Part shown: piece by piece, positions 42,760 to 64,000 of the stretch
Numbering within the stretch: position 1 is the stretch's first letter
Layout: the number at the start of each line of letters is the position of its first letter
Assembly: GCF_016903815.1 (NCBI RefSeq)
Contig: NZ_CP069973.1
Length of the DNA: 64,000 bases
Direction: 5' to 3' (one strand)
Source of the DNA: Escherichia coli
Lineage (GTDB): Bacteria; Pseudomonadota; Gammaproteobacteria; Enterobacterales; Enterobacteriaceae
The notes under the pieces: model-generated
What the model saw: the letters and a program-made list of their open reading frames with translations, nothing else
The model's database searches: none
What the model was told of the DNA's origin: nothing
Program-made: the position numbers and the translations under genes

Positions 42760-42834
42760 GTCCTCTTAGTTAAATGGATATAACGAGCCCCTCCTAAGGG
42801 CTAATTGCAGGTTCGATTCCTGCAGGGGACACCA
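42760..42834 (+). tRNA. argW: tRNA-Arg (anticodon CCU)
   Basis: 75-nt sequence GTCCTCTTAGTTAAATGGATATAACGAGCCCCTCCTAAGGGCTAATTGCAGGTTCGATTCCTGCAGGGGACACCA with T-loop GGTTCGATTCC, CCT anticodon and 3' CCA. Confidence 0.93.
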
Positions 42835-42995
42835 TTTATCAGTTCGCTCCCATCCGTACCAGTCCGCAAAATCCCCTAAATATCAAGCCTTCCGTAGATT
42901 AACAGTTCGTCATGGTTCGCGTCAGATCGTTGACAGCCGCACTCCATGACGGGTAAAAAGTGGATAAAATAATTTTACCCACCGGATTTTTACCC

Positions 42996-44153
42996 ATGCT
43001 CACCGTTAAGCAGATTGAAGCAGCAAAGCCGAAAGAAAAACCATACCGCCTACTCGATGGTAATGGCCTGTACCTTTATGTCCCTGTGTCAGGGAAAAAG
43101 GTATGGCAGCTTCGCTACAAGATTGACGGTAAGGAGAAAATCCTGACTGTCGGAAAATATCCGCTTATGACTTTGCAGGAGGCAAGGGATAAGGCATGGA
43201 CTGCGAGGAAAGACATCTCGGTTGGCATCGATCCGGTAAAAGCGAAAAAGGCTTCGTCTAACAACAATTCCTTTAGTGTGATTTACAAGGAATGGTATGA
43301 GCACAAGAAGCAAGTCTGGTCAGTAGGCTATGCAACTGAACTTGCAAAAATGTTTGATGACGACATTTTACCTATCATCGGCGGCCTTGAAATTCAGGAT
43401 ATTGAGCCTATGCAACTGCTGGAAGTAATCCGCAGGTTTGAAGATCGCGGTGCAATGGAGCGAGCCAACAAAGCACGCAGAAGGTGCGGCGAGGTTTTCC
43501 GTTACGCTATTGTCACCGGCAGGGCTAAATATAACCCGGCACCTGACCTTGCTGACGCCATGAAGGGATACCGCAAGAAGAACTTCCCGTTTCTTCCAGC
43601 AGACCAGATCCCGGCATTCAACAAAGCACTTGCAACATTTTCAGGAAGTATCGTATCGCTCATTGCGACCAAAGTTTTACGCTACACAGCCCTAAGAACG
43701 AAAGAGCTTCGTTCCATGCAATGGAAGAACGTCGATTTTGAAAACAGGATTATCACCATCGACGCCAATGTGATGAAGGGACGCAAAATTCATGTGGTCC
43801 CGATGTCAGACCAGGTGGTTGAACTTCTCACTACGCTAAGCTCAATCACCAAACCAGTCTCAGAGTTTGTTTTTGCCGGGCGCAACGATAAGAAGAAGCC
43901 AATCTGCGAGAACGCGGTATTGCTTGTGATCAAACAAATCGGCTATGAAGGTCTGGAAAGCGGTCACGGATTCAGGCATGAATTCAGCACAATTATGAAC
44001 GAGCACGAATGGCCTGCTGACGCTATTGAAGTGCAGCTGGCACATGCCAACGGCGGATCTGTGCGCGGTATTTACAACCATGCTCAGTATCTCGATAAGC
44101 GCAGAGAAATGATGCAGTGGTGGGCGGACTGGCTTGATGAAAAGGTGGAGTGA
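42996..44153 (+). CDS. intS: P4-type tyrosine integrase (prophage integrase at argW)
   Basis: Starts MLTVKQIEAAKPKEKPYRL; C-terminal tyrosine-recombinase domain (HGFRHEF...VQLAHANGGSVRGIYNH); immediately 3' of the tRNA. Confidence 0.92.
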   Translation: MLTVKQIEAAKPKEKPYRLLDGNGLYLYVPVSGKKVWQLRYKIDGKEKILTVGKYPLMTLQEARDKAWTARKDISVGIDPVKAKKASSNNNSFSVIYKEWYEHKKQVWSVGYATELAKMFDDDILPIIGGLEIQDIEPMQLLEVIRRFEDRGAMERANKARRRCGEVFRYAIVTGRAKYNPAPDLADAMKGYRKKNFPFLPADQIPAFNKALATFSGSIVSLIATKVLRYTALRTKELRSMQWKNVDFENRIITIDANVMKGRKIHVVPMSDQVVELLTTLSSITKPVSEFVFAGRNDKKKPICENAVLLVIKQIGYEGLESGHGFRHEFSTIMNEHEWPADAIEVQLAHANGGSVRGIYNHAQYLDKRREMMQWWADWLDEKVE

Positions 44154-44269
44154 ACCACCTTAACCACTATCGAAGAGCACAAAACCTTGCAATCAAGTGC
44201 AAAGCTTTGTGTGTTATTTTTTATGGCTATATAAATTATATACTGCCAGTGCTATCTAACATTTAAATA

Positions 44270-44926
44270 TTATGAACTATAATAAGTCCTAATCTTTACA
44301 GATGAAAGCATAATCTTCCAAGCTTGATCGCTACCCAACCACTCATCGTTGGTTGGTTCATTATCACCAGATACTACATAAGTATCTGGCATATCAAAGT
44401 CTATATTGCAAAGGTCTTCTCCTTTGCGCTCCTTAAAAATAAGAAGATCTATTTTTGTTGTTGGGAATTTTTTATCCAAAACACTTCTCAGTTTATACAC
44501 AGCATCTCGTTCTGCATTCAATCTAACGAGTAAAACACGTTCCGACTCATTGATTTTCTCTATAAATCTTTTTCTTCTCGCCTTTATTTTTTTCATCATA
44601 TTAAACAAGCAGACTTCAATACCTTGTTTTTCATAGTCATCAATAAGAATATCGTGAATACTTCGAAATCCAGTCGCTGTATCTGTGATATCAATACAAT
44701 TTTTAAATCTGCCATTAATTTTTATATTTTCAGGCAAGAAAAGGTGGTCGCACCCCTTATTAATTATTTTTGTAACTTGAGGTAGTTTTTGAGAGGCAAA
44801 CCAATCAAATGGTCCACTAAATGTCCTCAACCCAAATCGCTTTAACCTTCCTGCTGGTTGACATTTTTTACCAAGGCTTGCTATAAAATCATACTCTCCA
44901 CAAGGAAGAAAAAGGCCTTTATTCAT
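44270..44926 (-). CDS. Hypothetical protein, DUF1796-like (putative papain-like cysteine peptidase fold); prophage cargo
   Basis: AT-rich ORF; N-terminal motif GEYDFIASLGKKCQPAGRLKRFGLRTFSGPFDWF resembles DUF1796 by recall only; start taken at the second ATG, which has an AAGGA RBS (alternative start 44962). Confidence 0.6.
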   Translation of the reverse strand: MNKGLFLPCGEYDFIASLGKKCQPAGRLKRFGLRTFSGPFDWFASQKLPQVTKIINKGCDHLFLPENIKINGRFKNCIDITDTATGFRSIHDILIDDYEKQGIEVCLFNMMKKIKARRKRFIEKINESERVLLVRLNAERDAVYKLRSVLDKKFPTTKIDLLIFKERKGEDLCNIDFDMPDTYVVSGDNEPTNDEWLGSDQAWKIMLSSVKIRTYYSS

Positions 44927-63255: not shown

Positions 63256-63692
63256 TTTCCGAATAGAGTGCTCATCGGTGATGTTTCAATCTGGATTGCG
63301 CCGCCGTCTTTGCCTGTTAGCTCGTGATCAACCTTATCGCGCCATTTATCCTTCTGTCGGTTCTTAAGCCAGAAGATGGCGGCGGTTGTATCAGGCGGGT
63401 AATACTTCTCAAGCGGAGTTTCGACAATTCTGTTTTCAATAACACGAATATCGATGTCTGGAGCCACGAAGCCCATAGCGCGTTGATAAAGACGATCACT
63501 AACTTCTGCATCAGCGACGGCCTTACCCTTTTTTATGGACTCTAAAAACTCCGGATATTCCAATTTCCAATTGTTGATTGTTGCCTCGCTAACTTCAAAG
63601 AAGTCCGCGAGTTCGGCGTCTGTATAGCCCAGCAAGCACAGTTTGCGTGCCTGTTCGGCATACGCCTCTTGATACTTCGTTGGGCGCGCCAT
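63252..63692 (-). CDS. Terminase small subunit
   Basis: 146-aa ORF with N-terminal HTH-like region (LGYTDAELADFFEVSEATINNW), overlapping the terL start by 4 nt. Confidence 0.75.
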   Translation of the reverse strand: MARPTKYQEAYAEQARKLCLLGYTDAELADFFEVSEATINNWKLEYPEFLESIKKGKAVADAEVSDRLYQRAMGFVAPDIDIRVIENRIVETPLEKYYPPDTTAAIFWLKNRQKDKWRDKVDHELTGKDGGAIQIETSPMSTLFGK

Positions 63693-63694
63693 GT

Positions 63695-63937
63695 TTATGC
63701 TCCGGTAGTGAACAGGTCTAACGCTTCCTTCGATTTACGCACCGCTTCGATAGTGCGGGTCGTGATATCTGAATTAGCGCTGCCTGACTGGAAGTGAATT
63801 TTGAATAGCTCAAGCTTCAGCTCGTCAGTGCCAATGAATTGAAATGCTTCTTCTGCGGCTGCGTTCTGGTTCATGACCAGTTTGTAAATCTCTAACTGGA
63901 ATTTCTGTTCTTCAGTCATGGGAATAATCTCTGCCAT
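63695..63937 (-). CDS. Hypothetical phage protein upstream of terminase
   Basis: 80-aa ORF tightly packed 3 nt upstream of terS on the same strand. Confidence 0.45.
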   Translation of the reverse strand: MAEIIPMTEEQKFQLEIYKLVMNQNAAAEEAFQFIGTDELKLELFKIHFQSGSANSDITTRTIEAVRKSKEALDLFTTGA

Positions 63938-64000
63938 TGTTGGCTCCGTTTATCCGTTAAAAGGGATATCAGTTAAGTTATCCCGTGTAGGGTATAAGCC

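Follow-up and report, generated by a model that had tools for sequence, protein, structure and literature searches.

The prophage at argW in this clinical E. coli, an O102 bloodstream isolate, is of the P22/Sf6 type and belongs to Lederbergvirus. It is very probably a full temperate prophage of 39.2 kb that entered the 3' end of argW via an IntS/TorI recombination module of the KplE1/HK620/Sf6/CUS-3 type, and it looks complete. The window, i.e. the whole stretch of 64,000 nucleotides that was analysed, contains the left 21.2 kb of the element: attL and intS, a low-GC moron of two genes, and the whole late morphogenesis operon, which lies on the minus strand and is transcribed from TerS to the tailspike. 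The prophage is already known, being publicly deposited as ON470594, and P22-like prophages at argW are well described. Its sole unusual features are a small cargo, possibly capsule-altering, and the IS2 that has entered the late operon; novelty is confined to the lead that links the cargo and the tailspike to the capsule.

The first-pass annotation had described a P22/Sf6-like prophage at argW, which the tRNA call of ARAGORN and the Pfam, PHROG and PDB matches bear out. In megablast, the element is 100% identical to ON470594 (taxonomy Lederbergvirus) except for the IS2, 97% identical to Gally and Sf6, and 96% identical to HK620. The integration target, argW, encodes tRNA-Arg(CCU) at 42760–42834 (plus strand; ARAGORN) and is the same as K-12 argW in alignment. 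Its 3' end forms the attL core, CTGCAGGGGACACCAT (42820–42835, plus strand), the 16-nt core published for KplE1 (PMC2951348). The phage arm of attL, which in KplE1 contains the intS promoter region (PMC2951348), spans 42836–42995 (plus strand) and differs from the K-12 attL arm at three aligned positions; both att arms of the prophage are near-identical to K-12 attL and attR. The integrase gene, intS (42996–44153, plus strand), encodes a tyrosine integrase of 385 amino acids with the Pfam domains Arm-DNA-bind_3, Phage_int_M and Phage_integrase. It had been matched to the IntS of the K-12 CPS-53 element, and 382 of its 385 residues (99%) are indeed those of that protein. TorI is identical to K-12 TorI at all 66 residues (100%).

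The rest of the element can be read in E. coli NZ_CP103521.1, which is 100% identical to the window over all 64,000 bases. As the first-pass annotation had it, the other prophage end falls outside the window: a second copy of the core lies 39,208 bp downstream in that genome, at the window-equivalent positions 82028–82043. IntS thus stands beside attL, TorI beside attR, and CTGCAGGGGACACCAT at both ends, as in the KplE1/HK620-type module. When the 3'-terminal 25 or 41 nt of the tRNA were used as the query, no second copy turned up even with as many as three mismatches allowed, the real core being just 16 nt; the core pair was detected by a repeat finder. Past the window end, NZ_CP103521.1 is annotated with intact xis/torI, recT, kil, N, a LexA-family (cI-like) repressor, cro and cII, as well as a replication protein, a DnaB-like helicase, nin genes, Q, a holin, a GH24 lysozyme and a spanin. 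The early and lysis genes sought to the right of the window are therefore there, and the truncation or loss of early, lysis or replication regions that would have told against an intact prophage is not seen. A complete temperate lambdoid prophage is expected to have two att sites and genes for immunity, replication, antitermination and lysis; all are present here, and the only gene flagged as a pseudogene is an Ea22-like accessory gene.

From int to TerS, the genes follow the P22-like order proposed in the first reading, each as an uninterrupted ORF identified by Pfam, PHROG and PDB. In the order of transcription, with all genes on the minus strand, the late region begins with a DUF2560 (hkbM-like) small protein (63695–63937; Pfam DUF2560; 98.8% identical to HK620 hkbM). 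The terminase small subunit, TerS (63252–63692, 146 aa; phrog_309), is of the CUS-3 type, matching CUS-3 TerS over its full length at 97–100%, whereas its match to Sf6 gp1 is restricted to the C-terminal 37 aa. It is followed by the terminase large subunit, TerL (61843–63255, 470 aa; Pfam Terminase_3; Gally 99.6%), the portal gp1 (59714–61840, 708 aa from the ATG at 61840; Pfam P22_portal; Gally 99.7%), the scaffolding protein gp8 (58816–59700, 294 aa; phrog_648; Gally 99.3%), and the coat protein gp5 (57533–58804, 423 aa; Pfam P22_CoatProtein; 99% to Gally and HK620). Then come an hkbT-like small ORF (57305–57490, 61 aa; phrog_3251; 100% to HK620 hkbT), gp4 (56848–57330, 160 aa; Pfam P22_Tail-4; 99.4% to Gally and HK620), and gp10 (55421–56839, 472 aa; Pfam Phage_stabilise, E = 8e-299; Gally 98.9%). 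The tail needle gp26 (52887–53588, 233 aa) is of the knobless HK620 type (PDB 5bu5 over 233/233, E = 2e-136; 94% to HK620 gene 26). The gp14 homolog (52432–52887, 151 aa; Pfam DUF2824; 98% to HK620 gene 14) precedes the ejection proteins gp7 (51737–52429, 230 aa; Pfam P22_gp7 over 1–230/230, E = 5e-134), gp20 (50339–51727, 462 aa; Pfam Inj_translocase; Gally 98.7%) and gp16-like (48342–50339, 665 aa; phrog_770 'DNA transfer protein', E = 3e-239; Gally 98.6%, full length). The operon ends with the tailspike (45778–48177, 799 aa), in which a P22 head-binding domain is joined to a propeller-type receptor-binding domain. An NCBIfam scan of gp16, the needle, TerS and the cargo gave no useful match.

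All components of a P22-like morphogenesis module are thus present and in order, namely portal, scaffold, coat, gp4, gp10, gp26, gp14, gp7/gp20/gp16 and a tailspike with the P22 head-binding domain. The late genes are collinear with those of Gally and HK620, at 94–99.7% identity. Ten of the late proteins (tailspike, gp16, gp20, gp14, gp10, gp4, coat, scaffold, portal and TerL) are full length and 98.6–99.7% identical to those of Gally (OV696608), a functional P22-like prophage of AIEC LF82. By the affinities of its genes, the late module is a mosaic: its TerS is of the CUS-3 type, its needle of the HK620 type, and its gp16, gp20 and tailspike of the Gally type.

The claim that the morphogenesis arm is intact holds for the structural ORFs, all of which are full length and unbroken, but not for the operon, which is interrupted by an IS2 within an HNH gene. 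This stretch, 53588–55418, had gone unlisted in the first-pass annotation. The IS2 (53975–55305, minus strand, 1331 bp; Pfam HTH_Tnp_1 and rve) has its transposase genes oriented as the late operon and is labelled by RefSeq/PGAP as 'IS3-like element IS2 family transposase, programmed frameshift'. It is flanked by a perfect 5-bp target duplication, GTTCC, at 53970–53974 and 55306–55310, so that the insertion relative to ON470594 amounts to 1336 bp (1331 bp plus the duplication). Size, domains and target duplication are those of IS2 (IS3 family). The insertion interrupts, at codon 36, an HNH-AP2 endonuclease gene (164 aa) that lies between the needle gene 26 and gene 10. The 5' part of this gene (36 codons, 55311–55418, minus strand) was read from the sequence and is collinear with ON470594, in which the gene is unbroken (164 aa). 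The 3' part (128 codons, 53588–53974, minus strand; Pfam HNH_3 and AP2) was delimited from the junction sequence; it is annotated as a 137-aa ORF whose ATG and first nine codons are supplied by the IS2 end. Among the genomes with at least 80% of the region, 2 of 19 have the IS2. The perfect target duplication and the occurrence in just two near-identical isolates indicate that the insertion is very recent. Recent transposition of IS2 has split a dispensable homing-endonuclease gene and left the structural genes undamaged.

The word intact, as used here, is a statement at the level of sequence. After induction, recombination between the two 16-nt cores would be carried out by TorI and IntS, and Q-antiterminated late transcription would lead to a short-tailed T=7 virion, filled by headful packaging, that bears a needle and six tailspikes. 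For KplE1, whose int/xis/att module is the same, excision in vivo has been described (PMC2951348). Gally produces roughly one virion per cell, lysogenises its host anew and packages its DNA in steps of 40.1 kb (PMC9928086). The present prophage is probably still able to excise, to express the genes downstream of IS2, and to package.

A rival reading is that the prophage is complete in sequence and dead in function, polarity from IS2 or an exceeded packaging limit having left it only excision and lysogenic-conversion functions. IS2 sits in the only late operon, where six essential genes (26, 14, 7, 20, 16 and the tailspike) lie downstream of it in the transcript, and it could cause polarity. 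Against this, a simple scan of IS2 on the late-gene strand found no intrinsic terminator, and in lambdoid phages the Q-modified polymerase passes terminators. The genome including IS2 has grown to 39.2 kb, so that a headful of 40.1 kb would leave no more than about 0.9 kb of terminal redundancy; it nevertheless remains slightly below the approximately 40.1-kb headful measured for the near-identical Gally. Sister copies have suffered independent insertions (in strain 98224, for instance, a group II intron has entered the portal gene), which points to a lineage that is accumulating damage and to relaxed selection for virion production. In the copy studied here, however, every essential ORF is unbroken and differs little from its counterpart in functional phages, and the IS2 event is very recent. 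Loss of function is therefore considered unlikely, and a complete prophage remains the preferred reading. That the late arm is the sole survivor of a degraded remnant like K-12 CPS-53, with which the element has its attachment site and a near-identical int/xis module in common, is highly improbable and is refuted by NZ_CP103521.1, where the element runs to its full 39.2 kb, with a proper attR and with genes for immunity, replication, nin, Q and lysis (CPS-53 is 10.2 kb long and lacks structural genes of this kind), unless the source strain differs past position 64000.

Between int and tailspike, the prophage carries a pair of cargo genes. The first (44270–44926, minus strand) encodes a DUF1796 protein of 218 aa with no signal peptide, whose Cys, His and Asp are invariant; no mention of DUF1796 was found in the literature searched. 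The second (44927–45658, plus strand) encodes a GDSL/SGNH hydrolase (Pfam Lipase_GDSL_2, E = 1e-21). The start annotated in RefSeq is 45122 (178 aa), but further conserved sequence and a signal-peptide-like segment lie upstream of it, and the homologs are about 224 aa long with N-terminal signal peptides. The SGNH blocks I, II, III and V (GDS, GIGGD, GxND and DGxH) are invariant among homologs. The DUF1796 and SGNH genes also occur as a pair in the kps-type region 2 of Pseudomonas taetrolens and of metagenome contigs, and next to homologous tailspikes in other phages. In the K24-like capsule locus of the host, the neighbouring genes of the pair are present and the pair itself is absent. The cargo thus has the features of a conversion module: a moron between int and tailspike, homologs in polysaccharide loci, and intact catalytic motifs. 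We infer from this setting that the DUF1796 protein and the exported SGNH esterase may act as a capsule-modification unit, plausibly by O-acetyl editing, which the phage would supply to a locus without the pair. PADLOC, run on the cargo and on the two large proteins of the neighbouring island, gave no defence-system match, and the cargo as a known defence system is thus unsupported.

The receptor domain of the tailspike is predicted by a structure model to be a five-bladed propeller like that of phi11 Gp45. Outside the head-binding domain, the sequence has no match to solved tailspike bodies; with a propeller-based model, a classical beta-helix depolymerase is rejected. Region 2 of the host capsule locus, a K24-like group-2 locus with genes for CDP-glycerol-type (teichoic-acid-like) enzymes, encodes a propeller protein of which the domain is a distant homolog. 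The same receptor domain (99% identity) is found in the prophages of the O102 host and of an O83 host (that of Gally), which makes the O antigen unlikely as the common receptor; the kps region 2 is common to both hosts. Counted by genomes, the rare K24-like capsule locus is present in 29 of 33 that bear the cargo. The association is not universal: the other four are absent from the 60 genomes listed as having 80% or more of the capsule region, and WCHEC4533, the only one of them inspected, belongs to the same clone and has exchanged its region 2 for one of the ribitol type.

Taken together, it is possible, if short of probable, that tailspike and cargo form a matched capsule-specific pair, in which the tailspike recognises the K24-like capsule rather than the O antigen and the DUF1796 and SGNH proteins modify that capsule. 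The modelled propeller suggests binding to a teichoic-acid-like capsule, and the cargo would then bring about capsule-targeted conversion. CUS-3, with its neuO and the K1 capsule, would offer a parallel in which both att site and genome position agree.

The prophage as such is of little importance. Some practical value lies in its being a likely source, in an O102 bloodstream isolate, of generalized or lateral transduction, and in its IS2-tagged copy, a convenient natural marker for the tolerance of late-operon insertions. If true, the capsule lead would assign a function to DUF1796 and its widespread SGNH partner, and a K antigen of the teichoic-acid-like kind would have a modifier that is carried by a phage. 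P22-like phages would in addition gain a capsule-specific tailspike of the propeller type, with a bearing on capsule typing and on phage host-range prediction in extraintestinal E. coli.

Among known elements, the closest is ON470594 (vB_EcoP-683R2), a PHASTER-predicted prophage and not an isolated phage (bioRxiv 10.1101/2022.06.29.498070). It is identical over 42996–64000 save for three SNPs and the IS2, which it lacks; identity continues for 3.1 kb past the window, and cargo, tailspike and argW att site are the same. About 3.1 kb past the window end its early region diverges, as expected of mosaic phages, and its attR directly adjoins the csc genes, without a second island. Gally differs in its integrase and its attachment site between torS and torT, in its Sf6-type knobbed needle and its TerS, in having an mnt/immI-like region, and in lacking both the DUF1796/GDSL cargo and the HNH gene. 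HK620, Sf6, CUS-3 and CPS-53/KplE1 have the same IntS/TorI/argW module and 16-nt core; HK620 and Sf6 also have the same head genes, and CUS-3 the same TerS. As in this group, the moron lies between int and tailspike, where oac is found in Sf6 and neuO in CUS-3. In contrast to HK620, Sf6 and CUS-3, the present prophage has the DUF1796 and SGNH cargo, an extra HNH gene and the IS2, and its receptor domain is a predicted five-bladed propeller instead of a beta-helix endorhamnosidase, endoglucosaminidase or endosialidase. Gp45 of Staphylococcus phage phi11 (PDB 5efv), with 15% sequence identity to this domain, is a siphovirus baseplate protein that binds Gram-positive wall teichoic acid, whereas the present domain forms one protein with a P22 head-binding domain. 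No virion, lysis or immunity genes are left in CPS-53, of which the prophage is, as first supposed, a much fuller relative at the same site (39.2 kb against 10.2 kb).

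The prophage occupies the argW locus. In the window, ARAGORN finds a sole tRNA, tRNA-Arg(CCT) at 42760–42834, with yfdC and mlaA upstream of it, matching the K-12 argW locus. The window matches E. coli NZ_CP103521.1 (strain 2779, a blood isolate from Houston) at every one of its 64,000 bases, and therefore the continuation past the window was read in that genome. Extending the sequence to the other att copy, as the first-pass annotation had proposed, succeeded: a repeat finder places the att core CTGCAGGGGACACCAT, which is the last 15 nt of argW plus a T, a second time 39,208 bp rightward, just downstream of torI. 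Both phage arms are nearly identical to attL and attR of CPS-53 in an alignment with K-12. The same 16-nt core has been published for KplE1/CPS-53, the cryptic K-12 prophage at argW, for which excision in vivo is stated and whose recombination module is common to KplE1, HK620, Sf6, and CUS-3 (PMC2951348). The proposed match of the integrase to that of CPS-53 is borne out, as IntS is identical to K-12 IntS at 382 of 385 residues; TorI is identical at 66 of 66.

Several further observations concern this locus. The 16-nt argW T-arm sequence TTGCAGGTTCGATTCC, which in the tRNA sits directly 5' of the att core, recurs exactly, about 20 bp upstream of where torI starts (6656–6671 in the compared sequence L002, about 81719–81734 if window numbering is continued through NZ_CP103521.1). 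It is kept in the prophage, ON470594 (Escherichia phage vB_EcoP-683R2), and CPS-53; the other positions are 12276–12291 in K-12 (L003) and 37105–37120 in the compared sequence L001. Counting the att core as well, the phage thus holds the final 31 nt of argW in two parts, with torI between them. Just downstream of intS, 61 bp (44154–44214) are conserved at 87–98% both in over 100 E. coli genomes and in numerous lambdoid, Stx, and P22-like phages without the cargo; they are probably a shared terminator or a junction where morons are exchanged. Apart from a hypothetical 415-aa gene of low GC (about 35%) at 39277–40524, the rest of the window (1–42700) is ordinary core chromosome running from hisP to yfdC; in K-12 the place of that gene, between fadL and mlaA, is taken by yfdF.

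The early, lysis, and replication regions, whose truncation would have spoken against a complete prophage, are annotated intact between the window end and attR in NZ_CP103521.1: holin, GH24 lysozyme, spanin, Q, and a nin region with RusA and NinB; DnaB-like helicase, replication initiator, cII, cro, LexA-family repressor, and N; and kil, RecT, and TorI. The only gene marked as a pseudogene there is Ea22-like. A second integrative island of 10.3 kb follows in tandem directly after attR (NZ_CP103521.1 1498039–1508362, or 10039–20362 in its extract L004; window-equivalent about 82028–92350). It encodes a P4-type integrase, rolling-circle Rep, and resolvase, along with two proteins (821 and 330 aa) that have no match in Pfam or PADLOC. 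Its boundary before the csc genes is a third att copy, CTGCAGGGGACACCAG; argW is thus the site of a tandem array containing three att cores.

The large ORFs to the right of the tRNA are exactly those listed in the first-pass annotation, and profile searches assign each one unambiguously. The tyrosine integrase has its arm-binding, central, and catalytic domains, and the tailspike has a P22 head-binding domain; also recognised are gp20 (Inj_translocase), gp7 (P22_gp7, 230/230), gp14 (DUF2824), gp10 (Phage_stabilise, E = 8e-299), gp4, P22 coat, scaffold, P22 portal, and TerL. The gp16-like protein corresponds to phrog_770, the needle to phrog_1219 and PDB 5bu5 (233/233 residues), and TerS to phrog_309. 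In tblastn against the late region of Gally, the P22-like prophage of LF82, the tailspike, gp16, gp20, gp14, gp10, gp4, coat, scaffold, portal, and TerL have full-length matches of 98.6–99.7%. Gally is a working phage: it yields ~1 virion from each cell, can lysogenise a Gally-deleted LF82 again, and packages its DNA in steps of 40.1 kb (PMC9928086). The genome here is 39,208 bp with IS2 and 37,872 bp without it; even with IS2 it stays under that headful, and the terminal redundancy would drop to ~0.9 kb. In ON470594, TerS (window 63252–63692) is labelled 'HNH homing endonuclease' in error; its real HNH gene is called 'endolysin' and gp14 'head decoration protein'.

The morphogenesis arm had been described as apparently intact. 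This stands for the listed genes and for the late proteins, full-length against Gally, but not for the late operon, which is interrupted by IS2. That description left out three ORFs located between gene 10 and the needle gene; by profile search, two are IS2 orfA and orfB (HTH_Tnp_1; rve) and the third is an HNH_3 plus AP2 endonuclease fragment. Compared base by base with ON470594 (taxonomy Lederbergvirus; a PHASTER-predicted region, not an isolated phage), the region is 100% identical in two pieces: 42996–53974 has zero mismatches and, after a 1336-bp insertion, the sequences stay collinear up to the end of the window, differing by three SNPs. This insertion comprises the 1331-bp IS2 (53975–55305) and the duplicated target GTTCC, and interrupts an HNH-AP2 gene of 164 aa at its codon 36. 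Since HK620 has no gene between genes 10 and 26, the HNH gene is itself accessory, an insertion of homing-endonuclease type whose loss should not affect the virion. IS2 has the same orientation as the late operon, and a simple scan found no intrinsic terminator on the late-operon strand within it. In lambdoid phages, Q-antiterminated transcription should read through; IS2 polarity remains the main risk to prophage function. Among 19 complete genomes with at least 80% of the region, only NZ_CP103521.1 and NZ_CP103762.1 (identical over the 24 kb compared) have IS2. In strain 98224 (NZ_CP173472.1), which lacks IS2, a group II intron (ltrA) splits the portal gene of a sister prophage copy; this mobile-element insertion into the late operon is a separate event from that of IS2.

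Between int and the tailspike, a stretch of 33% GC holds two divergent cargo genes. The DUF1796 gene (44270–44926, minus strand) encodes 218 aa with no signal peptide and with invariant Cys34, His103, and Asp104. Its structural model is confident (pLDDT 90) and has weak likeness to known folds; the matches listed are mostly SGNH-like alpha/beta folds, and papain is absent from them. The GDSL/SGNH hydrolase gene (44927–45658, plus strand) conserves all four catalytic blocks. Its annotated start at 45122 (RefSeq and GenBank, 178 aa; 45110–45124 and 44927–45121 are concerned) leaves out a conserved N-terminal part and a hydrophobic, signal-peptide-like stretch present in all homologs, which are ~224 aa with signal peptides. 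Because conserved residues lie upstream of 45122, the annotation is probably too short and the predicted start probably lies further upstream, where no clear canonical start or RBS is evident.

The pair is rare: among 5,426 complete E. coli genomes, 31 have it and 2 more have a variant. In Pseudomonas taetrolens and metagenome contigs it lies in region 2 of kps-type capsule loci, beside a TagD-like cytidylyltransferase, a GT29-like protein, a CDP-glycerol glycerophosphotransferase, a TPR protein, and a Phage_RBD_prop protein. In the host genome, the kps locus carries the same region-2 gene set without the pair (TPR proteins of host and Pseudomonas 34% identical). This region 2 occurs in only 60 of the 5,426 genomes, and 29 of the 33 cargo-bearing genomes fall within the 60, against 0.36 expected by chance, a figure inflated by clonal inheritance. 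WCHEC4533, one of the four exceptions, belongs to the same clone and has switched to a ribitol-type region 2. Region 2 is 96% identical in LF82 and A0 34/86, the K24 type strain (PMC5063008). The last region-2 gene of the host kps loci encodes a five-bladed propeller protein (Phage_RBD_prop) that bears the annotation 'phage baseplate protein' (L020 32318–33286 and L021 33463–34422, loci outside the window), and is found in both glycerol-type and ribitol-type group-2 capsule loci of the clone.

The tailspike receptor domain is 99% identical to that of Gally, and the hosts are O102 here and O83 for Gally, which argues against the O antigen as common receptor. The tailspike body is distantly homologous to the capsule-locus propeller protein (E = 4e-9 and 7e-9), and in other phages the pair adjoins tailspikes with receptor domains 55–59% identical to this one. 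We infer, with more doubt than conviction, that a capsule-specific tailspike and a matching capsule-modification cargo may form one module, which would be analogous to CUS-3 neuO.

The P22-like prophage at argW is thus real and was correctly interpreted, but it is ordinary, and its sequence is already public in ON470594 and RefSeq genomes. It has every feature of a P22-like temperate prophage with a KplE1-type argW module that can be judged from sequence, with the uninterrupted late operon as the only exception. The prophage is a mosaic of known modules: TerS is of the CUS-3 type (97–100% identical), the head genes are of the HK620/Sf6/Gally type, the needle is of the HK620 type (94% identical to gene 26), and the ejection proteins and tailspike are of the Gally type.
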